DNA from: Salmonella phage vB_SenS-3
Length of the DNA stretch: 64,000 bases
Direction: 5' to 3' (one strand)
Sequence record: OR896822.1
Part shown: piece after piece, positions 37,971 through 52,981 of the stretch
Layout: every line of letters begins with the position of its first letter
Position numbering within the stretch: position 1 is the stretch's first letter
Program-made: the position numbers and the translations under genes
Notes under the pieces: generated by a model
What the model saw: only the letters and a program-made list of their open reading frames with translations
Told to the model about the DNA's origin: nothing
Databases searched by the model: none

Positions 37971-38745
37971 TATTATTTTTCTCCAATAGTTCTTTAATCG
38001 ACAGGATTTCTATCCCATTCGTTTCGGCTTTCTTATAAGATGAGGAAGAACGTTTTGATTCATCCTCACAGATTAGGTATTTGACGTCTTTGGTAACGGA
38101 CTTCTTGACCGTATATCCTAGACTTTCTAAATAGTTTGTTGCATCCGTTCGATTTGCAAAATCTTGCAAAGATCCGGTAATACAGATCGTGATTCCATTT
38201 GGCTGGGCAACTAAATCATCCGTAATGATGATATCAGCTTTAGTACCTCGAATACCAGTTGAGAATTTCCATGGTAATTCAATAACATCCTTGCCTTGTG
38301 GGGAATTTAGCCAGGTTTTGTAATTTTCTCCAGCCTTGCCGTCAGCCTTCACATCGTGGAAGCTAGTGCAATTTTGGGACAGTTTCTTTGCTGCAACCTC
38401 TCCAATAAGAGGAATTCCTAAAGAACCGAGAACCGAACCAAAGTCAATGTCTCCGCGAACCTTAGTATTTAACTCGCTAATCAACTTAGCGGCAACCTTG
38501 CTACCAACAGCTCCGACCAAATCTTCTTCGGTCAGGTAAAACAGTTCTGAGATCTTAGTCAGTTCCAGCTTCTCAATAGTTTTCGGGCCAAAGCCCTTTA
38601 ACTTCATTTTTGTGCAGAAGTTCTCGATTAACTTACTTGATTGCGCTGGACAGTTGGACTTATTCCTACAGAATAATTGCCCGTTGACAAGATCTAGCTT
38701 AGAACCACAAGAGGGACATTGTGTTGGAATTTCGATTTTCATCAA
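37963..38745 (-). CDS. NAD-dependent DNA ligase, C-terminal part (zinc finger, HhH, BRCT; subunit B)
   Basis: 260 aa beginning with zinc finger CPSCGSKLDLVNGQLFCRNKSNCPAQ, then HhH-like GFGPKTIEKL; own promoter upstream. Confidence 0.75.
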   Translation of the reverse strand: MMKIEIPTQCPSCGSKLDLVNGQLFCRNKSNCPAQSSKLIENFCTKMKLKGFGPKTIEKLELTKISELFYLTEEDLVGAVGSKVAAKLISELNTKVRGDIDFGSVLGSLGIPLIGEVAAKKLSQNCTSFHDVKADGKAGENYKTWLNSPQGKDVIELPWKFSTGIRGTKADIIITDDLVAQPNGITICITGSLQDFANRTDATNYLESLGYTVKKSVTKDVKYLICEDESKRSSSSYKKAETNGIEILSIKELLEKNNNV

Positions 38746-38772
38746 ATTTCTTCCTTATCAATTTATATAAAT

Positions 38773-38801
38773 ATTATAGCAAGTATTTAAGCATTTAGCA
38801 A
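38773..38801 (-). promoter_or_regulatory. T5 early-type promoter for ligase B part
   Basis: Minus strand TTGCTA-17-TATAAT followed by ATTTATATAAATTGATAAGGAAG and ATG. Confidence 0.6.
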
Positions 38802-38865
38802 CTACAATTTTAACTAACTTTGCTTACCCTCGCCATAACTTTCTATCCCTCAACTGAATGATAAT

Positions 38866-38894
38866 AGTATATACCTAAGCGGCGAAAATGTCAA
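38866..38894 (-). promoter_or_regulatory. second sigma70 promoter between ligase parts
   Basis: Minus strand TTGACA-17-TATACT. Confidence 0.45.
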
Positions 38895-38944
38895 TAACCA
38901 CTTTATAATTCCGACATGGTAAACGGGTAGCAAAGGGTTACGAA

Positions 38945-39919
38945 TTAGTCGTATACTCGCTCTACTATACAAGGGATTACACCACCAGCACGAATCACTC
39001 GAATCTGGCAACCGATCTCTAAATCGAGAGCGTTAATATAATCAACGTTATTAAGAGTTGCTTTAACGATTGTGGCATCATCAATAATCACCGGCTCGAA
39101 ATAACCAACTGGAGTTACTTTACCAGAAGCCCCTACTTGCCATTCAACTTTAACAAGTGTGGTAATTTCGCCTTCTTCATCCTCTTTAATAGCAAATGCA
39201 CCGCGAGGAAATTTATTAGTCCAACCTTCACGGAAGAATTTGTTGTTATCATTAATACGAACAACTTTACCATCCGTCGGAATCCACTTAAAGAAGGAAC
39301 GAACATTAACAACTGTCAAGAAGTTCTCATTCTCTAGCCAAAGCATATCTTTTAAATAGGCTTCTGTAATACCGACTGTTTCCGCTGAACACTGGATACC
39401 ATATGCAACGAAGATTAAACCACCTTCACCAATACGTTGCATGAAATCATCACTATCTTTCAGGTTAATAGCACCAGAAGCATAGTTACGTTTGTTCTCT
39501 ACTTCTTTAGTAATGAGAACTTCACCAGTGATTTGAGTTGGTACTTTTTGGGAAATAGTTTTGGGGATGTTCAGCATTTTAACATTATGCGTTACATCAT
39601 TCCCTAGAATACCGTTACCACGAGTTAACGCTTGAACAAACTCACCATTAATATATAATAGAGAAATCGCACAACCATCTAACTTATCAGTTTCAACCTG
39701 ACCAAGTGGGTTGAATGGAGCTTTATCACCACGATCGTAATAGACTTTCTGCAAAGAATACATACGATACAAATGAGGGATATCACCTTTCGGTCCGATT
39801 TCTTCCTCTAGTGGGAATCTTTTAATCAGACGATCATATTCTTCATCGGAAATAAGACTCATTCCCTGGTAGTACGCTTCTTGACAACGTTTAATAAAGT
39901 CTTTTACATTATTCATCAT
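38945..39919 (-). CDS. NAD-dependent DNA ligase, N-terminal part (adenylation + OB domains; subunit A)
   Basis: 324 aa; adenylation active-site motif KLDG (DKLDGCAISLLYING); ends exactly after the OB-fold region, where the zinc finger would follow. Confidence 0.8.
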   Translation of the reverse strand: MMNNVKDFIKRCQEAYYQGMSLISDEEYDRLIKRFPLEEEIGPKGDIPHLYRMYSLQKVYYDRGDKAPFNPLGQVETDKLDGCAISLLYINGEFVQALTRGNGILGNDVTHNVKMLNIPKTISQKVPTQITGEVLITKEVENKRNYASGAINLKDSDDFMQRIGEGGLIFVAYGIQCSAETVGITEAYLKDMLWLENENFLTVVNVRSFFKWIPTDGKVVRINDNNKFFREGWTNKFPRGAFAIKEDEEGEITTLVKVEWQVGASGKVTPVGYFEPVIIDDATIVKATLNNVDYINALDLEIGCQIRVIRAGGVIPCIVERVYD

Positions 39920-40109
39920 CTGCGATTTCCATTTTGAGTTCTTTATTATACTGAGCAGCCATACCAGCTAAATCAGCAGCTTCTTTTAACCACGCATCTT
40001 TGTACGCTTTCTGGTTTGGAGTGCCAGTATTGTCCTGATAATTGATCTTTGCTATGGAAAGCAAATTAAGTTTTGCTTGAATCTTTGGAAGTGTTATTGT
40101 CATTGCCAT
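39909..40109 (-). CDS. small hypothetical protein
   Basis: Start placed at ATG 40109 (MAMTITLPK) with GAGAGGA RBS directly after a T5-type promoter; ORF track start is 40127. Confidence 0.35.
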   Translation of the reverse strand: MAMTITLPKIQAKLNLLSIAKINYQDNTGTPNQKAYKDAWLKEAADLAGMAAQYNKELKMEIADDE

Positions 40110-40138
40110 AATTGATCCTCTCATCAATTTATATAAAT

Positions 40139-40167
40139 ATTATATATGAAAACTGAGTCGAAAGCAA
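40139..40167 (-). promoter_or_regulatory. T5 early-type promoter
   Basis: Minus strand TTGCTT-17-TATAAT followed by ATTTATATAAATTGATGAGAGG. Confidence 0.6.
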
Positions 40168-40194
40168 GTACATTTATAAAGAAAAAGCCAAGAA

Positions 40195-40503
40195 CTAGGC
40201 ATTCTTGGCTTTGAGTTCTTCAGCTCGTTTCTGTACTTCATGCAAGACCTCGGATTCACTGAGGATTTGCGTAAAAGCGTAGAATAGCTGTGACGTAGTT
40301 TCTAGGGTATAAGGAAAAGAGAAGCCGGATTTCGTTGGAAACCACTCTCCAGTAATATCTTGGAGCCAGTAACGAATTCCCATGTATAGATTCCCACGAA
40401 ATTCAGATACGGTTAGTCTTACTTGTTCTCCCTCCTTCTCCCAAAGCATGATGGACTGGTCGTCAACGTGTCCTTCATAGTTTTGATTTACCTGATCGCT
40501 CAT
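40195..40503 (-). CDS. small protein, possibly PC4-like ssDNA-binding fold
   Basis: 102 aa; segment VRLTVSEFRGNLYMGIRYW resembles the PC4/YdbC-type motif (vs...EFkGk.yidiReyw); from memory, unverified. Confidence 0.4.
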   Translation of the reverse strand: MSDQVNQNYEGHVDDQSIMLWEKEGEQVRLTVSEFRGNLYMGIRYWLQDITGEWFPTKSGFSFPYTLETTSQLFYAFTQILSESEVLHEVQKRAEELKAKNA

Positions 40504-45876: not shown

Positions 45877-46372
45877 AACAATACTCCTATGTTGGTTATT
45901 CGAATATCTTTCTTTAGGACTATTCAAAAGAATAGAACAACTATTACTACCATTTACACAAACATTAATCATCATCAAGCAGTATGAATAAGTTATCATA
46001 CCTCAGTGCTGCGCTCTCTTAACTCTTATCCAGATCAGAACCTAGGTCATTGGCCGCTAAGCCGATTCTGATTGCCCTCACTATCCTATTGGTAGGTGGC
46101 TACTGGACGTGTCACCATTCGCTGCTCTTTTCGTTCGCACCCCCATATAAAGCTCTGCCTATATAACGAGCTAAATATGCACGGTTTGGATTTACCTTTC
46201 CGAATTCAGGGTACGCAGATCACTTAATTGATAATTAACTAATGCAGTATAAACACTAGTAATAGTTAAAACAACCCTTAATGGGGCAGCCTAACTGTTC
46301 CGTATTGCGGACTGTAAACAAGAAAAATTAGCAAAATCAATTTTTACTAATGTCTCTCAATTCAATATAAAT

Positions 46373-46401
46373 ATTATATCAAGATTTTGAGCATCCTGCA
46401 A
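46373..46401 (-). promoter_or_regulatory. T5 early-type promoter about 480 nt upstream of primase-helicase start
   Basis: Minus strand TTGCAG-17-TATAAT followed by ATTTATATTGAATTGAGAGACA. Confidence 0.55.
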
Positions 46402-46440
46402 GTAAAATTTTTCCGAAGGTGCTATCAGTGTCCTTGAGCA

Positions 46441-46468
46441 CAGAGAAAACCGAGTCAAAATGACTCGG
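46441..46468 (-). terminator. rho-independent terminator (minus strand)
   Basis: Minus strand hairpin CCGAGTC-atttt-GACTCGG followed by TTTTCTCTG. Confidence 0.6.
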
Positions 46469-46492
46469 TAATCAGGATTGAGCTAATGAAAA

Positions 46493-46816
46493 TCAATCAT
46501 CATTTAGGCCTGGGACATAGATTCCAATGCGATTTAATTGACCTTTAGCTTCTTCGAGAATATCTTCGGTGTACTCCCAAATATCATCTTCTACTTGCAA
46601 AAGATAAGGGGATTCACCAGTTTCGGGCTCACGTGTAATGGCTAAGCCACGTGGATGGAATATAGAGAAGTTGAGGGCAACAATCAAGCCCATGCTGGAC
46701 AATTCATTCCAGTCAGCTTCCCAGCCATCATCTTCATCTTCGTCCACAAATACACCTACACTAGGGTCTGTTACAGAAGTAAACGGAAATGTTACACTAA
46801 CCTTGTCAACCCCCAA
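46493..46816 (-). CDS. hypothetical protein, paralog of 46898..47326; N-terminus interrupted by in-frame TAG (possible pseudogene)
   Basis: C-terminal 70 aa align with the neighbour (DWNELSSMGLIVALN...GIYVPGL vs DWKELDEMGLVFALN...GYMIPGL); an in-frame ATG at 46888 with TAAGGAGG RBS gives MEQVFWRQIDPSLV, then TAG at 46844-46846. Confidence 0.4.
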   Translation of the reverse strand: MGVDKVSVTFPFTSVTDPSVGVFVDEDEDDGWEADWNELSSMGLIVALNFSIFHPRGLAITREPETGESPYLLQVEDDIWEYTEDILEEAKGQLNRIGIYVPGLNDD

Positions 46817-46897
46817 CCAACGTGCAAGGAGCCCCTCAGCACGCTATACCAAACTAGGATCTATCTGACGCCAAAATACTTGTTCCATTCTGCCTCC

Positions 46898-47326
46898 TTA
46901 AGCAGTTAAACCTGGGATCATATACCCGAAACGACGAAGTTTCTGAATCCCCTCATTTACTTCCTCGGGCGAATATGACCAGCCCTCACGTTCATTTACC
47001 TGGAAAGCAGGAGCTTCACCAGTGCGATAGTTTACAATAAGACGGTGATTTGCAGGCATAAACAGCTTATGGTTCAAGGCAAAAACCAGACCCATTTCAT
47101 CGAGTTCTTTCCAGTCTACAATTTCTTCTACTCCCCCACCTAAATCCACGCTAACTCCAATACACGGAGCTTCCTCTAGTGGGCCTTTAAAAGACAGGAA
47201 GATATCGTTATTCTCACACCAAATCTTAAGCAGATTGATGGTTTCATTGTACATACCATTAGGGAGAGAACGCCAGAAGTTGAGGAGCATAGGATTTACC
47301 TCTTTCATGAAAATATTATTGAACAT
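46898..47326 (-). CDS. hypothetical protein (paralog pair member A)
   Basis: 142-aa ORF; start 2 nt after upstream stop; homologous to the downstream ORF. Confidence 0.5.
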   Translation of the reverse strand: MFNNIFMKEVNPMLLNFWRSLPNGMYNETINLLKIWCENNDIFLSFKGPLEEAPCIGVSVDLGGGVEEIVDWKELDEMGLVFALNHKLFMPANHRLIVNYRTGEAPAFQVNEREGWSYSPEEVNEGIQKLRRFGYMIPGLTA

Positions 47327-47328
47327 GC

Positions 47329-47868
47329 TTATACCTTAAGTTTCTGAAGAGCCTTACACATTTCAAGATCTGGACTAAATTCCAGCATATAGCTTATAGC
47401 ATTTAAATCTTGAAGGTTTATTCCAGTCCTGCCATTTACAATAACAGTAGGAAATTGGTACATCATAGCACCAGCATCATCTAGGACGCACCAATGCTTG
47501 AGCTTATGTTTTTCTACGAAACGTAAGACAGAATTACCTCGAGATAAACCACCTCCAGTAAAATCTGTTGTACCAAGAAAACGATCGATCAAACCGAGTC
47601 CGGTCATAATCTGAACGTTCTCCATTTCATTTCGTACAGAAAACCATGAAGATACCCCAACAATCATTATTGGGGATGGCTTAAGAAAGTTCTGAAAAGC
47701 CTGGAGTAATGGCTTGTAAACCCAATCACCACCAAAGAATAGCTTTTCACTATCTGGAGCATGATGGTGAGAGATGCTCGAATTGAGCACCCCATCAATA
47801 TCCGGGAAAATCACAGGAGTATTACTTATTTCCACCAGTAGCATCCCACGTCCAGACTTTAACTTCAT
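47329..47868 (-). CDS. HAD-superfamily phosphatase, 5'(3')-deoxyribonucleotidase-like
   Basis: Motif I FPDIDGVLN (DxDGxL) near N-terminus as in NT5C-type nucleotidases; true start may be the internal Met (MLLVEIS). Confidence 0.5.
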   Translation of the reverse strand: MKLKSGRGMLLVEISNTPVIFPDIDGVLNSSISHHHAPDSEKLFFGGDWVYKPLLQAFQNFLKPSPIMIVGVSSWFSVRNEMENVQIMTGLGLIDRFLGTTDFTGGGLSRGNSVLRFVEKHKLKHWCVLDDAGAMMYQFPTVIVNGRTGINLQDLNAISYMLEFSPDLEMCKALQKLKV

Positions 47869-48007
47869 CAGTAAAAGGAACTGGAACCTTCAATTCACCT
47901 TTACCCCACATAACAGATAGGAACAGAGAATAAATGGTAATCATACCGATTAGGTTGACAAACCATACTAGACCTTTCCAGATACCCTTAAAAATCTTCT
48001 TCACCAT
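47822..48007 (-). CDS. small membrane protein (61 aa)
   Basis: ATG at 48007 with AAGGAGG RBS; single hydrophobic helix GLVWFVNLIGMITIYSLFLSVMW. Confidence 0.35.
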   Translation of the reverse strand: MVKKIFKGIWKGLVWFVNLIGMITIYSLFLSVMWGKGELKVPVPFTDEVKVWTWDATGGNK

Positions 48008-48170
48008 ATTCTCCCTCCTTAATAAGGAACTCTTTCCATTCTGCTGTATCCTCATAGATAACGCAGAAATCATCACTCTTCCATGAGAAGTCATCAGTAG
48101 CAAATTCGAAACGGTAGCACCAACTACCGTCTGGCCATACTAAAAGATCACACATGCTTTTCTGGGACAT
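47988..48170 (-). CDS. small acidic protein (60 aa)
   Basis: ATG at 48170 with GGAGGG RBS; acidic C-terminus EGEYGEEDF. Confidence 0.3.
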   Translation of the reverse strand: MSQKSMCDLLVWPDGSWCYRFEFATDDFSWKSDDFCVIYEDTAEWKEFLIKEGEYGEEDF

Positions 48171-48999
48171 AAATATTTCCCTCCATAAAAGCTTCAACTT
48201 GATCAATAAAGTGTTTATTACCAAAAACTTCGGCAGCTCCAGCACGCCATACAGTAACACCACGTTTCTCATATTCAAGCTGTTCATCATAGCGAACTTG
48301 AGGGTTAACAACCATCATCTTAGTTCCACGACATACAGCAGGGAATAGTTCCCAGTTGAAGTCAATCACTTGGTTGCTACAACCTACTACAATAACCATA
48401 TCATTGCTAGTAAGTGTATCAAACAGGTTAATCTGACCCATATACCACGGAGCCGTCTCACCAAAGAATGTTACGTTTGGTTTTACCCATTCGTAATCTT
48501 CAGGAACAATTGCAGTGTATCCAACATCTTCGATGATTTGATTGCGACCCCGACGATAGATCACCTCTTTCAAGTACCCGTGAGCGTGAATGATTTCATC
48601 ACGAGGGATACCAGCACGTTCCAGAAGGTCATCAACGTTAGTAGTGAAGTTCTTCACGCTATCCGCACCATAACGCTGGAACCATTCTGCAATTCGCAGA
48701 TGGGCAATGTTAGGCTCAACAGTCTGTAATTCCTGACGACGCATGTTGTAGAACTCATGAGTCTTGAGATACAGATCGTTACCCTCTTCATCAATGCCAG
48801 GGAAACGAGCACTGAAGTAGTTAGGATCATCTTCACCACAGAAGCGACGGAAGCCAGCTTCAAAGTTAGGCAAGCTACATACTTCCTCTAGATCGTACTC
48901 ATCCCACAAAGATTTTCCACTAGCAGTATCAGTACGGAAAGCACGAACACCACTATCAACACTTAAACCAGCACCACTAACAATGATTAGTCTACGCAT
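48148..48999 (-). CDS. Sir2-family (sirtuin-like) NAD-dependent protein
   Basis: 283 aa; N-terminal Rossmann motif IIVSGAGLSVDSGVRAFR (cf. GAGIS..SGIP.FR); His-containing IIHAHGYL; C-terminal VVNPQ; no obvious zinc ribbon. Confidence 0.65.
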   Translation of the reverse strand: MRRLIIVSGAGLSVDSGVRAFRTDTASGKSLWDEYDLEEVCSLPNFEAGFRRFCGEDDPNYFSARFPGIDEEGNDLYLKTHEFYNMRRQELQTVEPNIAHLRIAEWFQRYGADSVKNFTTNVDDLLERAGIPRDEIIHAHGYLKEVIYRRGRNQIIEDVGYTAIVPEDYEWVKPNVTFFGETAPWYMGQINLFDTLTSNDMVIVVGCSNQVIDFNWELFPAVCRGTKMMVVNPQVRYDEQLEYEKRGVTVWRAGAAEVFGNKHFIDQVEAFMEGNIYVPEKHV

Positions 49000-49193
49000 T
49001 ATACGATTCCTTGCTTGAATCCTTCGATGATATTTTGGAGCAGAATTGCTTCTTCTGGGCGAACCTTCTCTTGCTTAATAAGCATATCCAAACCAGCAAT
49101 ACAGGTAGCTACTCCAGCATTATACCCAGCATTCCACTGCTCCATAAGCATATTTTCTAAATTACTTTTTAGATTCTGATTCAAGAAGTCCAT
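48999..49193 (-). CDS. small hypothetical protein
   Basis: ATG at 49193 (MDFLNQ...) with GGAGGA RBS; ORF track start 49277 lacks RBS. Confidence 0.35.
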   Translation of the reverse strand: MDFLNQNLKSNLENMLMEQWNAGYNAGVATCIAGLDMLIKQEKVRPEEAILLQNIIEGFKQGIV

Positions 49194-49365
49194 AAAGTTT
49201 TTCCTCCAATTCCATAATACGATTTTCGTAAGAAGCACGCAGCTTCTCGATGGACAAAGCACGAACTGTAACTTCATCTGAATTGATCGCTAGCTGAGCT
49301 AGATCTTCTGTTTCCATACGTCCGTTGTAAATTAAGCGATATTTAAGATGTTTTACGTTTTTCAT
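49162..49365 (-). CDS. small hypothetical protein
   Basis: 67 aa, ATG with TAAGGAAC RBS; overlaps next gene start by 32 nt. Confidence 0.35.
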   Translation of the reverse strand: MKNVKHLKYRLIYNGRMETEDLAQLAINSDEVTVRALSIEKLRASYENRIMELEEKLYGLLESESKK

Positions 49366-49374
49366 TCTTGTTCC

Positions 49375-49656
49375 TTAGTTCTGTACTGTAAATTCATTCT
49401 TATCACAGTGAGCATAATAATACCCATACATACGATAAATTTTCACAGCCTTAGTAGACCCCTTCGATTCTTCATAATCAATCCAGAGCCACTTGTCTTT
49501 ACCTACATAATGTACCCGAAACTTCTTAACTTTCTTATCATTCCATGTTGCAACAACACGACGATAATCAAATCCGCCCAACCAATCTAGAGCCTTACGT
49601 TCTTCACTAGGCTCTCCAAGATGGGAAACATCTACTTTCGGAAGCAATTCGCTCAT
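49375..49656 (-). CDS. hypothetical protein
   Basis: 93 aa; first gene downstream of a T5-type promoter; GAGGAG RBS. Confidence 0.45.
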   Translation of the reverse strand: MSELLPKVDVSHLGEPSEERKALDWLGGFDYRRVVATWNDKKVKKFRVHYVGKDKWLWIDYEESKGSTKAVKIYRMYGYYYAHCDKNEFTVQN

Positions 49657-49684
49657 AGCTTTCTCCTCTCAAATTTATAAATCA

Positions 49685-49713
49685 ATTATACATAAGTTTT
49701 AGCTCGAAAGCAA
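49685..49713 (-). promoter_or_regulatory. T5 early-type promoter
   Basis: Minus strand TTGCTT-17-TATAAT followed by TGATTTATAAATTTGAGAGGAG. Confidence 0.6.
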
Positions 49714-49747
49714 ATAAAATAAAAGCCAGGTCGACTAGCAACCTGGC
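49712..49747 (-). terminator. rho-independent terminator after nrdD (minus strand)
   Basis: Minus strand hairpin GCCAGGT-tgctagtcg-ACCTGGC followed by TTTTATTTTATTT. Confidence 0.65.
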
Positions 49748-49754
49748 TGATTCA

Positions 49755-51629
49755 TTATTTAGCGCGAATGTCTTGATGTTTCACTCGACCCATAACCTCA
49801 TGTTGTTTACCTGGGTTAAACGGACGAGCACCTGGATTTCCAAGATATCCACAAACTCGACGAGTTACCTCAAGAGTCTCAGGATCATGATTGCCACAAA
49901 TTGGGCATTTGAAACCATCCTCAGAAGCTATAGTTTCACCCAAGAACCCACATTCCCCACAAGAGTCTACTGGAGTATTAATACCGAAGTAATGAACTTT
50001 ACTTGCAGCATAGTTAATAACCCATTCCAGTGCATCAGGGAATCGTTTCATATCAGGCAATTCCACATAGGAAATGCACCCACCAGAAGCAATTGGGGTA
50101 AAGTTAGACTCATAATCGAACTTCACGTTCGGAGCAACCTTACGCTCCACATCAAGGTGATGAGAGTTAGTGTAATATCCTTTAACCAGAATATCTTCAT
50201 GCTCTGGGAAATACTCACGATCTAGACGACAGAAGCGATCACATAGAGATTCAGATGGTGTAGCATACAGACTATACCCTAATTGAGTCTCTTCCTTCTT
50301 CTGATCAGCACGATCACGCATGTATTGTAGCACACGTTGAACGAACTTGATACAGGATTCAGACATTGTATCTACATCTTTACCAAACATGAACTGTAAC
50401 ATTTCGTGGCAGCCAATATATCCTAGAGATACAGAAGCACGCTTGTAGAAATGATCAAATACATATTCATCTGGCCCCAGACGTAATCCAAAGGCTCCTG
50501 ACATATAGAGGATGGGCGCAGCTTTAGCTTGAATGTACTTTAAGCGATCAACCCTCCACTCCAATGCTTTTAACGCGGTATCCACACGCAGCTCAAGCAG
50601 ATCGAAGAATAGATCAATATTACCTTCCGCTTCGATAGCAATTCGAGGTAGGTTTACAGAAACAACGCCTAAGTTGTTACGACCAGAAGTTTCACCATCT
50701 TCCGCAGCAGCCAGGAATGAACGACAGCCCATAGAGACTTTGTAGTCTCCCGTAACTTCTACAACCTTATCATAACTGATGTAGTCAGGATACATACGTT
50801 CAGCAGTACATTTCATAGCTAACTTCTTGATATCATAGTTAACATCACCAGGTTTCATGTTTACGCCATCACGCAAAACAAATACCAGTTTAGGGAAGAT
50901 AGCTGTACGTTTATTGATACCCAAACCATCCATACGCACTTCTAGGATTGCTTTCTGTACAAGACGTGCTTCCCAAGAAGTTCCTAGACCAAACCCAAAG
51001 GTAATAAACGGACTTTGACCATTAGAGTTGAACATCGTATTGATTTCATACTCCAGGCCCTGACAGGCATCGTAAACTTCTTTCTCAGTCATTTCCGTAG
51101 CCATTACAGATGCTTTAGCTTCATCCTTAGTCCAACGCTTTGCAAACGCATGATTCTTATCATAAGACTTACGAACATAAGGAGCCAATACTTCATCTAA
51201 TCGGTCTACAGAAGTACCCCCATATTGATGTGAACTAACCTGAGTGATAATCTGAGCTGTGATAGCAGCCGCAGTAGTAATAGAGTTTGGTGTACTGATT
51301 TCAGCATTACCAACCTTCATACCATTCTTCAACATATCTTCCAAAGCAACCAGGCAACAGTTAGTCATACCTAACGCAGCGTAATCAGCATCATGGAAGT
51401 GAATATCACCAATCATGTGAGCATTTCGAATCTGGATTGGCATTTCTTCCAGAATCAGATGTTTACTCAATTCCCCTGCAAGCATGTCCCTTTGTGTAGG
51501 GAAACGTTCGCTTGGTTTGTTCGCATTATTAAAGAGTAGCTCTTCATCTGCTGATCCTTCGATAATTTCTTTGCAGTTTCGAATTAAGGACTGCACTCCT
51601 TTATACTTTAGTTCTTCATTGCGATTCAT
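49755..51629 (-). CDS. nrdD: anaerobic ribonucleoside-triphosphate reductase (class III)
   Basis: 624 aa; C-terminal glycyl-radical motif RVCGYLG; zinc ribbon CGECGF...CPICGN; GAAGGAGGG RBS. Confidence 0.85.
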   Translation of the reverse strand: MNRNEELKYKGVQSLIRNCKEIIEGSADEELLFNNANKPSERFPTQRDMLAGELSKHLILEEMPIQIRNAHMIGDIHFHDADYAALGMTNCCLVALEDMLKNGMKVGNAEISTPNSITTAAAITAQIITQVSSHQYGGTSVDRLDEVLAPYVRKSYDKNHAFAKRWTKDEAKASVMATEMTEKEVYDACQGLEYEINTMFNSNGQSPFITFGFGLGTSWEARLVQKAILEVRMDGLGINKRTAIFPKLVFVLRDGVNMKPGDVNYDIKKLAMKCTAERMYPDYISYDKVVEVTGDYKVSMGCRSFLAAAEDGETSGRNNLGVVSVNLPRIAIEAEGNIDLFFDLLELRVDTALKALEWRVDRLKYIQAKAAPILYMSGAFGLRLGPDEYVFDHFYKRASVSLGYIGCHEMLQFMFGKDVDTMSESCIKFVQRVLQYMRDRADQKKEETQLGYSLYATPSESLCDRFCRLDREYFPEHEDILVKGYYTNSHHLDVERKVAPNVKFDYESNFTPIASGGCISYVELPDMKRFPDALEWVINYAASKVHYFGINTPVDSCGECGFLGETIASEDGFKCPICGNHDPETLEVTRRVCGYLGNPGARPFNPGKQHEVMGRVKHQDIRAK

Positions 51630-51658
51630 TACACCCTCCTTCTCTAATTAAGACTACT

Positions 51659-51687
51659 ATTATAACTCATTCGAAGGCGGATGTCAA
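51659..51687 (-). promoter_or_regulatory. consensus sigma70 promoter for nrdD
   Basis: Minus strand TTGACA-17-TATAAT (perfect consensus hexamers). Confidence 0.7.
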
Positions 51688-51737
51688 CAATATTTTACCA
51701 TAAAGTTCTGTAACATGATCTGAGTCAAAAAATTTTA

Positions 51738-51766
51738 TTTGCCAACCTCTATTAAAAATAGTATAA
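51738..51766 (+). promoter_or_regulatory. sigma70 promoter (plus strand, divergent from nrdD promoter)
   Basis: TTGCCA-17-TATAAT. Confidence 0.5.
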
Positions 51767-51879
51767 TCACACGCCCGTGTACGCGATATAAAATGATTAT
51801 CTAGTACCATACATCTCCCAATAAAAGCAAGTAAATTTTTTATTTAAAAGCAATATCATGGGTTTATTTAAAATTATAC

Positions 51880-51908
51880 TTGCTTTTTGCTGTAAACCTT
51901 GTTATAAT
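51880..51908 (+). promoter_or_regulatory. T5 early-type promoter upstream of phoH
   Basis: TTGCTT-17-TATAAT followed by ATATTTGTAAGTTGAT. Confidence 0.6.
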
Positions 51909-51984
51909 ATATTTGTAAGTTGATAAACAAGATCTCTTTGTTGATCCTCTGTTAGAAGCGAAGTACACTATAGGAGTGTTATTT

Positions 51985-52737
51985 ATGGGAAAAGCACGTC
52001 AAAAAAGAGAGAACCGCAATGGTTCAAGAAAGCGTGGCAACAAGTATGATAGTAACGTAATTCAAGCAGATTTCTCTGGTGATTACGCCAATCCAGTTGC
52101 TAAATCCCTAGTTGGTAAAAACCGTGAGCAAAAATCATATATCAATATGATCAAGAACAACACAGTGACTGTTGGTATTGGTGAACCAGGTACTGGTAAA
52201 ACCTTTATTCCGTCCGTTCTTGCAGCTCAGGAACTCGTAGACATTCACTCAGATATTGAGCAAGTGATCCTCGTGCGTCCGAACGAACCTCTAGGTAAAT
52301 CTCTTGGTATGCTCCCAGGTGATCTGGCAGAAAAGCTAGAGCCTTGGTTGGAACCAATAGCCGATGGCATGAAATGGGCAATCGGTGATCACGCCTACAA
52401 AGGATATGTCGAACGTCAGAAAATTAAATTCCTGGCTATCGAACATGCCCGTGGCCGAACTTTCAACAACTCCTATGTAATTGTCGATGAAGCTCAGAAT
52501 ATCTCCGTTGAAGCAATGATCTGTCTCCTGACTCGTGTAGGACAAGATTGTCGTTTAATTATCTGTGGGGATATAGCGCAGAAAGACATCAAGGGTGATT
52601 CAGGTCTAGCACTTCTTATGGAAGTCTATGAGAAGTATGAAAACTCTCCTTTCTCTATGATCGAACTGATCGACAACGTTCGCTCACCAGAGTCTAAAGC
52701 ATTCTACGATATCTTTAAGGATATGGGGAAGGTGTAA
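51985..52737 (+). CDS. phoH: PhoH-like ATPase
   Basis: Walker A GEPGTGKT; Walker B YVIVDEAQN; ATG at 51985 with TAGGAG RBS (ORF track GTG 51976 sits within the RBS). Confidence 0.8.
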   Translation: MGKARQKRENRNGSRKRGNKYDSNVIQADFSGDYANPVAKSLVGKNREQKSYINMIKNNTVTVGIGEPGTGKTFIPSVLAAQELVDIHSDIEQVILVRPNEPLGKSLGMLPGDLAEKLEPWLEPIADGMKWAIGDHAYKGYVERQKIKFLAIEHARGRTFNNSYVIVDEAQNISVEAMICLLTRVGQDCRLIICGDIAQKDIKGDSGLALLMEVYEKYENSPFSMIELIDNVRSPESKAFYDIFKDMGKV

Positions 52738-52738
52738 T

Positions 52739-52981
52739 ATGGGAAACGTCGTACATCTGCACCGCAAAACTAAGATTCACCGTACTTCACTGAGTGCTGC
52801 TAATATGATTACACGTAAGGAAGGGGAAGAAAGTCCTAAGACTACCCTAGCGTGGAAAATTGTAGCCTCTAATCCAAATCGGCCTTTTAATTATAACGAA
52901 TTGAGTACTTCTATAGACATTCTTATGGCTAAGGAAATACGACAGAAACTAACTGATATGACCGATAAACTTAAATGGTAA
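52739..52981 (+). CDS. hypothetical protein
   Basis: 80-aa ORF between phoH and a terminator. Confidence 0.4.
   Translation: MGNVVHLHRKTKIHRTSLSAANMITRKEGEESPKTTLAWKIVASNPNRPFNYNELSTSIDILMAKEIRQKLTDMTDKLKW

Follow-up and report, generated by a model that had tools for sequence, protein, structure and literature searches.

Published descriptions of phage sirtuins bear directly on the gene treated here, a Sir2-like gene of a 64,000-nucleotide stretch of Salmonella phage vB_SenS-3 DNA (OR896822.1; this whole stretch is called the window below). Skliros et al. (2016) modelled the Sir2/CobB proteins of the Vibrio schizoT4 phages KVP40, phiSt2 and phiGrn1 on CobB, described them as lacking the zinc ligand and listed T5 as a carrier of a homolog (PMC5107563). 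As a hypothesis, these authors proposed deacetylation of acetyl-CoA synthetase (PMC5107563). Iyer, Burroughs, Anantharaman and Aravind (2022) distinguished type 3 sirtuin contexts, with a HAD protein, from type 2 contexts, with an RNA ligase, and predicted that such sirtuins replace KptA in removing 2'-phosphates from RNA (PMC9503650). A preliminary description of the window, made from the sequence alone, had mentioned Sir2-like open reading frames (ORFs) annotated in T5-like genomes, with no functional characterisation known to it; the annotation was found, and no functional study was found in the literature.

The gene is thus already known: it is annotated in hundreds of genomes, and both its zinc loss and its neighbourhood are published. 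The correlation between Thr120 and the lack of zinc cysteines, the mapping of a CobB acyl pocket, the acidic charge, the cassette-like divergence and the fusion remnants that explain the mislabelling of a HAD gene may or may not be new. We regard it as very nearly certain that the window encodes a genuine sirtuin, orthologous to T5.102 and belonging to a zinc-less TTN branch of class III sirtuins, in an early operon with HAD_SAK_2. Nicotinamide adenine dinucleotide (NAD+) is a central battleground between phages and bacteria, with host NADase defences on one side and the phage rebuilding pathways NARP1-3 on the other. Because NAD+ is contested, a phage enzyme that spends it must gain something valuable.

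Identity of the phage sirtuin

The 283-amino-acid ORF at 48148-48999, as previously delimited, runs from ATG to stop and lies on the minus strand, which the preliminary description had not specified. The surrounding 3 kilobases (kb) have 100% identity with Salmonella phage polluks (MT074456; Epseptimavirus, Demerecviridae), where the gene, polluks_73, is annotated 'putative Sir2-like protein', and window coordinates differ by 19 bases from those of Salmonella phage S147. The window thus represents an Epseptimavirus of the polluks/S147 type. The product matches Pfam SIR2 (PF02146; E=2e-21, 77.2 bits against a gathering score of 24) and, end to end, PHROG 2162 'Sir2' (E=2.5e-107). It matches E. 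coli CobB (1s5p) at E=5e-16 by sequence and at 1.6e-24 with the family profile; among solved proteins, E. coli CobB is the closest in sequence, followed by Sir2Af2 and Sir2Af1, SIRT5 and Sir2Tm.

An AlphaFold2 model built from 23 diverse relatives has a mean predicted local distance difference test score (pLDDT) of 86.8 and a predicted template modelling score (pTM) of 0.85, and its Rossmann and small domains superpose on those of solved sirtuins. CobB is the top Foldseek match (E 1e-15, template modelling score 0.82 normalised on CobB), and all of the top 50 matches are canonical sirtuins. The model most resembles deacylase sirtuins (CobB, Sir2Af1, SIRT5), with the defence SIR2 NADases scoring far lower. 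CobB, Sir2Af1, PfSir2A and SIRT5, which we take to be class III sirtuins, stand at the head of all searches, and placement among the sirtuin classes by structure prediction puts the CobB-like deacylase sirtuins first. The coding sequence and its motifs are given below; "clade" refers to an alignment of 23 relatives that are 55-79% identical to the query.

48148-48999, minus: sirtuin coding sequence, ATG to stop, 283 amino acids; ortholog of T5 gene T5.102 and of polluks_73
48934-48975, minus: NAD-binding loop GAGLSVDSGVRAFR, residues 9-22, aligned to CobB GAGISAESGIRTFR; G9, A10, G11, S13, S16, G17, F21 and R22 invariant across the clade
48772-48858, minus: variable insertion, residues 48-76 (29 residues), in the helical small domain; alignment columns 50-77; pLDDT 75-78
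48736-48753, minus: FYNMRR, residues 83-88, with the class III Tyr-x-x-Arg pair Y84/R87, equivalent to CobB Y92/R95 (CobB AFYNARRR); F83, Y84, R87 and R88 invariant
48628-48645, minus: TTNVDD, residues 119-124, nicotinamide/ribose pocket; compared with CobB TQNIDN, Asn121 and Asp123 are retained and Gln is replaced by Thr120; T119, T120, N121, V122 and D123 invariant
48571-48594, minus: IIHAHGYL, residues 136-143, containing His140
48580-48582, minus: codon of the catalytic His140, which pairs with the second His of CobB VIHMHG; H138, H140 and G141 invariant
48484-48579, minus: small-domain beta module, residues 141-172, at the place of the zinc ribbon, without Cys; CobB has C..C....C.CC in the aligned stretch
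48457-48483, minus: KPNVTFFGE, residues 173-181, the sirtuin VxFGE substrate-tunnel loop, compared with CobB RPHVVWFGE; K173, P174, F178, F179 and E181 invariant
48352-48384, minus: GCSNQVIDFNW, residues 206-216, the GxS NAD-ribose motif followed by the clade-specific NQVINFNWELFP that replaces GTSxxVYP
48298-48312, minus: VVNPQ, residues 230-234; Asn232 (adenine-ribose contact in sirtuins) invariant

The motifs read in the preliminary description, namely the Rossmann signature (residues 9-22), the His within IIHAHGYL (residues 136-143) and the C-terminal VVNPQ (residues 230-234), are all present, and His140 aligns with the catalytic His of CobB. That description had staked its reading on the Sir2 fold and the catalytic His and Asn; the fold is found, and His140, Asn121 and Asp123 align with CobB. 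All NAD motifs and the catalytic His (G9-S13, F21, R22, N121, D123, H140, G206, S208 and N232) are present, aligned to CobB and invariant in the clade, the 23-member alignment adding V211 to the invariant positions G206, S208 and N232.

Its statement that an obvious Cys4 zinc ribbon is missing was also correct, since residues 141-172 contain no Cys in the query or in any of the 23 clade members. The four cysteines of the protein (41, 54, 207 and 223) all fall outside this segment, which aligns with the CobB zinc ribbon and is modelled as strands 141-150 and 153-158 (pLDDT about 93). Where TQN(I/V)D with Gln was looked for, the motif is TTNVD. The insertion at residues 48-76 is missing from about half of the clade and breaks the CobB alignment into two pieces. 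Motifs and modelled fold together show a genuine single-domain sirtuin that carries every residue required for NAD+ chemistry, apparently an active, NAD-consuming enzyme. Filing the protein as CobB itself was considered and rejected, because its matches to the NCBIfam CobB models are all sub-threshold.

Conservation, substrate pocket and distribution of the clade

Four departures from CobB characterise the protein: the zinc cysteines are lost, Thr stands in place of the Gln of TQN, a 29-residue insertion is present that relatives often lack, and NQVINFNWELFP takes the place of GTSxxVYP. A profile search of 1.84 billion representative proteins returned 4783 matches, 97 of them below 1e-30. Among the best 150 representatives, 35 combine Thr120 with at most one zinc-module Cys and 75 combine Gln with at least four; 35 of the 45 Thr-type representatives have no zinc-module Cys at all. 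Thr120 and the loss of the zinc cysteines go together and, judged by these alignments, mark one sub-family. The Y84/R87 pair is kept in most of the same 150.

In SIRT5 and CobB the equivalent Tyr/Arg pair (Y102/R105 of SIRT5) binds succinyl or malonyl groups. The acyl-lysine pocket of the phage protein looks CobB-like, this pair included. Residues A76, Y92, I131 and V187, the CobB selectivity residues named in Protein Data Bank (PDB) titles of engineered CobB variants, correspond to C41, Y84, V122 and V176, and R95 corresponds to R87, the substitutions being visible in the alignments; all are invariant or nearly so in the clade. The lysine-tunnel residues F179 (of FGE) and V211 (of GxSxxV) are invariant. 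The clade is uniformly acidic, with isoelectric points (pI) of 4.65-6.05 and net charges of -6 to -19; net charge and pI serve here as a crude proxy for surface electrostatics in the question of peptide versus RNA substrates.

Relatives were found by tblastn in 978 of 50,697 phage records. The carriers comprise T5-like phages, Sugarlandvirus, Erwinia phage KEY, phAPEC8-like and Vequintavirus myoviruses, Klebsiella phages of about 136-146 kb and Vibrio schizoT4 phages; the T5-like, rV5-like, phAPEC8-like, KVP40-like and jumbo phages in which relatives occur are used or proposed for therapy and biocontrol. Named homologs in the protein database belong to phage genomes, and contigs of at least 100 kb have phage genome size. 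A pattern-based, non-exhaustive scan for clade signature peptides in 185,579 prokaryotic species genomes (one per species) matched a single locus, which is T4-like phage DNA (neighbours endonuclease VII, NrdD, NrdG and a gp30.3-like NADAR protein) binned as a metagenome-assembled Bacilli genome (L081). As far as these searches can see, the clade is restricted to phages. Taken together, the comparisons place the protein in a zinc-less TTN branch, confined to phages, of the class III (CobB/SIRT5-like) sirtuins.

The sirtuin operon

The preliminary description's placement of the gene in an early operon agrees with its surroundings: it sits among replication and nucleotide-metabolism genes, and the T5 record annotates a promoter and a terminator around T5.100-T5.107, the same unit in that phage. 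The elements of the operon and its approaches in the window are as follows.

51739-51767, plus: promoter facing the opposite way, back-to-back between nrdD and phoH; sigma-70 match 11/12
51659-51687, minus: consensus promoter before nrdD; sigma-70 match 12/12
49724-49748, minus: terminator-like hairpin after nrdD, 10-bp stem and T run; also annotated in T5
49685-49713, minus: promoter-like TTGCTT-17 nucleotides-TATAAT before the operon, read from the sequence; T5 annotates a promoter at the same place
49162-49656, minus: two leading small ORFs, 67 and 93 amino acids (polluks_75, polluks_76)
48999-49193, minus: 64-amino-acid ORF (polluks_74), its stop overlapping the sirtuin ATG
47988-48170, minus: 60-amino-acid ORF (polluks_72, phrog_5116), function unassigned, overlapping the sirtuin stop by 23 nucleotides
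47822-48007, minus: 61-amino-acid hydrophobic ORF (polluks_71, phrog_11166), function unassigned, linking to the HAD gene
47329-47868, minus: HAD_SAK_2 phosphatase (Pfam PF18143), 179-amino-acid ORF, annotated start 47844; ortholog of T5.105
47782-47802, minus: HAD catalytic DxD motif DIDGVLN, intact
46493-47326, minus: two tandem DUF7415 paralogs ending the operon, orthologs of T5.106 and T5.107; Pfam PF24187, E 3.2e-36 and 1.5e-16
46449-46469, minus: terminator-like hairpin closing the sirtuin operon; also annotated in T5

The genes follow closely on one another, stop codons overlapping start codons, in the order three small ORFs, sirtuin, 60- and 61-amino-acid ORFs, HAD and two DUF7415 genes, and the HAD_SAK_2 gene begins 280 nucleotides downstream of the sirtuin. 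A Shine-Dalgarno sequence and the TTGCTT-17-TATAAT element lie upstream of the 93-amino-acid ORF, directly after the nrdD terminator; the automatic promoter scan missed this element, whose -35 box matches at only 3/6 positions.

The HAD protein matches PF18143, 'HAD domain in Swiss Army Knife RNA repair proteins', at E 4.1e-17 (63 bits against 27.5), and its DxD, S/T and DD motifs are intact, with D23, D25, S73/S74, R110, D130 and D131 invariant. Its AlphaFold2 model (pLDDT 87.8) has weak fold matches to capless HAD phosphatases, the best being MDP-1 at E 1.9e-3, with PNKP phosphatases at rank 36 or lower; a sequence search against the PDB gave no match. The DUF7415 paralogs are 73% and 65% identical to their T5 counterparts and about 30% identical to each other. 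Among the eight neighbouring ORFs none matches a Macro domain. Rfam gave no match on 46000-52200 and ARAGORN no tRNA across the whole window, so no RNA gene adjoins the sirtuin.

Several observations on neighbouring genes were made in passing. The T5 record notes DUF7415 relatives in Aeromonas phage Aeh1, which also carries a HAD homolog. The second DUF7415 gene (ortholog of T5.107, polluks_68) is interrupted in the window: codon 15 of the minus-strand ORF starting at 46888 is TAG (46844-46846) where polluks has GAG, and the ORF restarts at a TTG at 46816. The window is therefore not base-identical to polluks. Several RefSeq records give the name 'tail length tape measure protein' to an 80-amino-acid ORF after phoH (52739-52981, plus strand), and KEY and a viral contig (L072) have a DUF7430 match at that position; the tape-measure name is almost certainly an annotation artefact. 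The annotation of an NAD-dependent DNA ligase at about 38426-40382 (minus strand) divides it between two ORFs, one for subunit A and one for subunit B, that stand about 200 nucleotides apart, and by this ligase phage replication depends on NAD+. In S147, a phage of the same type, the region 68257-69991 of NC_048012.1 holds genes for a NadR-family nicotinamide mononucleotide adenylyltransferase and a PnuC-like transporter, and the phage has about 28 tRNA genes. NadR and PnuC make up the NAD+-rebuilding pathway NARP3, shown in a T5-like BASEL phage in 2026 (PMC13464706).

Gene contexts in other phages

The sirtuins of 66 viral contigs and of reference loci form 27 lineages at 85% identity, and with their neighbours likewise clustered they fall into four contexts. 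In the first, seen in 28 of the 66 viral-contig loci, all of T5-like genome size, 0.2-1 kb separate HAD_SAK_2 from the sirtuin; the same pairing is found in T5, in KEY and in two further contigs (L014 and L072). In KEY and L072 the order is HAD, one ORF, sirtuin, and this changed order indicates that the linkage outlived a rearrangement. Sugarlandvirus has the sirtuin without the HAD, and HAD_SAK_2 is found elsewhere without a sirtuin.

In the second, Vequintavirus-like context the sirtuin is directly preceded, in a co-directional block, by the genes of an Rnl1-type RNA ligase and an AAA_33 kinase, with phosphoesterases and a MazG-like protein nearby. These T5-like and Vequintavirus-like arrangements are the type 3 and type 2 neighbourhoods, respectively, of Iyer et al. 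(2022). In T4-like contigs and jumbo phage BF, NAMPT is immediately upstream of the sirtuin, and NADAR or NMNAT/Nudix proteins are encoded nearby. Two of the T4-like contigs (L059, 8057-13125; L081, 2664-9669) read (NADAR)-NAMPT-zinc-less TTN sirtuin-endonuclease VII-NrdD(-NrdG).

The sirtuin neighbours of phAPEC8-like phages have no Pfam match; their PHROGs are a DNA methyltransferase and a DprA-like protein, and the 161-amino-acid ORF upstream is unrelated to HAD. These results reveal no link to RNA repair in the phAPEC8-like lineage. In phage nimi, the 'putative Sir2-like protein' that adjoins the sirtuin has no Pfam match.

Dispensability and mosaicism

That the gene is accessory, as the preliminary description had it, is borne out by two phages deposited as complete genomes. 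In DT57C a 90-residue 'defective sir2' (L070, 3968-4240) is all that is left, an in-frame fusion of sirtuin residues ~197-250 to HAD residues 139-179. In SelmaRatti (MZ501103.1, 49629-49784) another truncation keeps the HAD from residue 128 only, with a breakpoint that differs from that of DT57C. Two different deletions in complete genomes imply that sirtuin and HAD were lost together at least twice, and these natural deletions show that the sirtuin gene is dispensable. Together with the gene order and the transcription signals, they show the sirtuin to be expressed from a compact, dispensable early operon with the HAD_SAK_2 phosphatase.

The HAD_SAK_2 gene is mislabelled 'Sir2 (NAD-dependent deacetylase)' in RefSeq (T5 NC_005859, 57588-58094; S147, 47348-47890), and PHROG 18062, which also bears the name Sir2, matches the HAD protein over its C-terminal half. 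Sir2-HAD fusion remnants are the likely cause of this mislabelling.

Protein identity between window and T5 is 89% for nrdD, 91% for the 67-amino-acid ORF, 90% for HAD, 94% for the origin-binding protein and 52% for the sirtuin; the small ORFs adjoining the sirtuin (window 47822-49193) give 34%, 53% and no match. In the identity matrix T5-like sirtuins do not pair most closely with one another and, by identity, are not monophyletic. The sirtuin and the small ORFs that flank it behave like an exchangeable cassette.

Predicted activity

We tentatively propose, well short of conviction, that the actual activity of the phage sirtuin is that of a lysine deacylase. NAD+ would bind in the Rossmann cleft through GAGxS, F21/R22, N121/D123, GxS and N232; an oxygen of the substrate would attack C1' of the nicotinamide ribose and expel nicotinamide, and His140 would activate the ribose 2'-OH to resolve the adduct. 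The substrate would be acyl-lysine, because the pocket is CobB-like (C41, Y84, R87, V122, V176, F179 and V211 are invariant or nearly so); its acyl group would be acetyl and probably also acidic (succinyl, malonyl), held by Tyr84/Arg87. Such a phage-made protein deacylase would act on host or phage proteins in early infection and yield nicotinamide and O-acyl-ADP-ribose. The nucleotide products would then be processed or recycled by the HAD phosphatase (in other phages by Nudix or NAMPT), or these neighbours would work on the pathway that the sirtuin targets.

The structural ranking, in which deacylase sirtuins come first, counts for this activity. An acidic clade suits basic protein substrates better than RNA, and the annotation of the 111-kb S147 genome, inspected over 96 kb, shows neither an RNA ligase nor a polynucleotide kinase there. 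The adjacency of NAMPT in T4-like and jumbo phages and the NadR/PnuC supply fit a stoichiometric NAD+ consumer that releases nicotinamide. If the protein is a deacylase, it gives the virus a route to reset the acylation state of its host.

Several points weigh against a deacylase. The gene neighbourhoods (HAD_SAK_2; Rnl1-type ligase, AAA_33 kinase, phosphoesterases and MazG) point to RNA-end chemistry, and the zinc loss, the change of Gln to Thr and the clade-specific segment in place of GTSxxVYP mean that substrate handling may differ. The NCBIfam CobB-type models (NF001753, NF040867, NF001755 and others) all missed the protein, the best at 86.7 bits against a threshold of 243 and the rest at 34-70 against 221-395. 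In the literature on T5.102/T5.105 and on viral or phage sirtuins we found no experimental work on any clade member. Host CobB restricts phages T4 and lambda-vir (PMC4271551), so that a phage copy of a generic CobB activity would bring no obvious advantage.

The neighbourhoods lead to a different proposal, which we consider possible but doubtful: that the sirtuin is an RNA-repair enzyme doing the job of KptA/Tpt1, the removal of an RNA 2'-phosphate. Tpt1 works in two chemical steps that formally parallel those of sirtuins. The 2'-phosphate of a cleaved or re-ligated RNA, such as a tRNA, would attack C1'' of NAD+, and the 2''-OH of the ADP-ribose, activated by His140, would then free the RNA 2'-OH and ADP-ribose 1''-2'' cyclic phosphate. 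HAD_SAK_2 would heal the RNA end or dephosphorylate the ADP-ribose product, and the pair would counter host anticodon nucleases or other metal-independent RNases. The gene pair carries exactly this prediction in print (Iyer et al., 2022; PMC9503650, section 3.7.3).

In its favour, the pairing with HAD_SAK_2 within 0.2-1 kb (28 of the 66 loci) survives the changes of order in KEY and L072, and an unrelated phage group has the sirtuin, an Rnl1-type ligase and a P-loop kinase in a single co-directional block, making two independent RNA-repair neighbourhoods. Within the protein, the invariant Tyr/Arg pair could accommodate either a carboxylate or a phosphate, and the clade-specific Gln-to-Thr change affects a ribose-handling residue. 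The phage has roughly 28 tRNA genes, and the hindrance of phages by host CobB makes a plain CobB copy an odd acquisition (PMC4271551).

Against RNA repair stands, first, that no sirtuin is known to act on RNA, and that the CobB-like lysine tunnel and acyl pocket would leave a narrow hydrophobic entry for a phosphate borne on a nucleotide. Tpt1/KptA proteins are basic, whereas the whole clade is acidic. The T5-like regions inspected have no annotated RNA ligase or polynucleotide kinase, the phAPEC8-like and Sugarlandvirus sirtuins lack a recognisable RNA-repair neighbour, and HAD_SAK_2 also occurs without the sirtuin. The HAD model matches capless HADs of the MDP-1/KdsC type no better than E 2e-3, with polynucleotide 3'-phosphatases at rank 36 or lower, and synteny among T5-like phages is inherited and worth little more than one observation.

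In its broadest form the proposal is that the zinc-less TTN phage sirtuins are not deacylases at all and are the first sirtuins to work on RNA, acting with HAD_SAK_2 (or, in other phages, with Rnl1 ligase and kinase) on tRNAs that host anticodon nucleases have cut, either to strip them of 2'-phosphates or to ADP-ribosylate their ends. We think this somewhat unlikely. If true, RNA-acting sirtuins would be an NAD+-dependent counter-defence in about 2% of sequenced phages, and the divergent-allele cassettes of T5-like phages would reflect an arms race. An RNA-end enzyme of this kind would extend sirtuin chemistry to nucleic acids and form a new arm of phage RNA repair.

It is unlikely that the sirtuin is an ADP-ribosyltransferase of the kind that SirTM, SIRT4 and SIRT6 can be, with NAD+ or NAD-capped RNA as the donor of ADP-ribose and a host protein, a small molecule or the end of a nucleic acid as the acceptor. 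On this account ADP-ribose derivatives would be handled by the products of the neighbouring HAD, Nudix and NADAR genes; but the operon has no macrodomain partner, SirTM is clearly more distant than the deacylase sirtuins, the protein keeps both its catalytic His and its acyl pocket, and no data suggest a target.

A plain NADase for host shut-off or competitor exclusion, resembling the Thoeris, DSR and SIR2-HerA effectors, had been raised in the preliminary description and would share with many defence SIR2 domains the lack of a zinc ribbon, but it is very improbable: structural similarity is lowest to the defence SIR2s, no defence sensor or partner module (SLOG, HerA, pAgo, STAND and the like) is fused or adjacent to the sirtuin, whose neighbours are small ORFs, HAD and DUF7415, and the phage has its own NAD-dependent ligase and NadR/PnuC (NARP3) rebuilding of NAD+ (PMC13464706). 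A defence-type NADase was rejected as the leading idea because none of the 5027 PADLOC models matched at E values up to 1.

Comparison with known systems

The defence SIR2 NADases (ThsA, DSR1/2, SIR2-HerA and SIR2-Avs5) have in common with the window sirtuin an NAD+-using, sirtuin-type Rossmann domain. SirTM is set apart by its operon with, or fusion to, a macrodomain, a feature that the window sirtuin does not have. KptA/Tpt1 performs an NAD+-dependent two-step transfer with attack by a ribose 2'-OH. It is a possible functional analogue that is likewise found beside RNA-repair genes (PMC9503650), but its fold is that of the unrelated ADP-ribosyltransferase superfamily; Pfam gives only SIR2 for the phage protein and all of its structural neighbours are sirtuins, so that the likeness is one of function and not of membership.

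CobB of E. coli and Salmonella and human SIRT5 are the best matches in sequence and structure and share the NAD motifs, the catalytic His, Tyr-x-x-Arg, VxFGE and GxSxxV. The window sirtuin is nonetheless only about 27% identical to them, has no zinc cysteines, reads TTN instead of TQN, carries the 29-residue insertion and has NQVINFNWELFP instead of GTSxxVYP. The Vibrio schizoT4 sirtuins differ in gene context and are about 32% identical to the window protein (ValKK3).

The window sirtuin is a member of the predicted RNA-repair sirtuin clade of Iyer et al. (2022; PMC9503650), a clade that belongs to phages of proteobacteria, is all but missing from cellular genomes and has Escherichia phage SP15 as its type 3 exemplar: the window protein too is phage-encoded, lacks a macrodomain partner and has a Swiss-army-knife HAD nearby. 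To that account, whose functional claim is a prediction, we add that the clade is acidic, that it keeps the CobB acyl pocket and that several of its lineages have no RNA-repair neighbours.

Closest of all are T5.102 and the other Sir2-like genes of the Demerecviridae, which share the position in the operon (nrdD, small ORFs, sirtuin, two small ORFs, HAD, two DUF7415 genes), the motifs and the lack of zinc cysteines. Despite flanking genes that are about 90% identical, the window sirtuin is 52% identical to T5.102, and its allele is nearer to those of Sugarlandvirus, KEY and the phAPEC8-like myoviruses.

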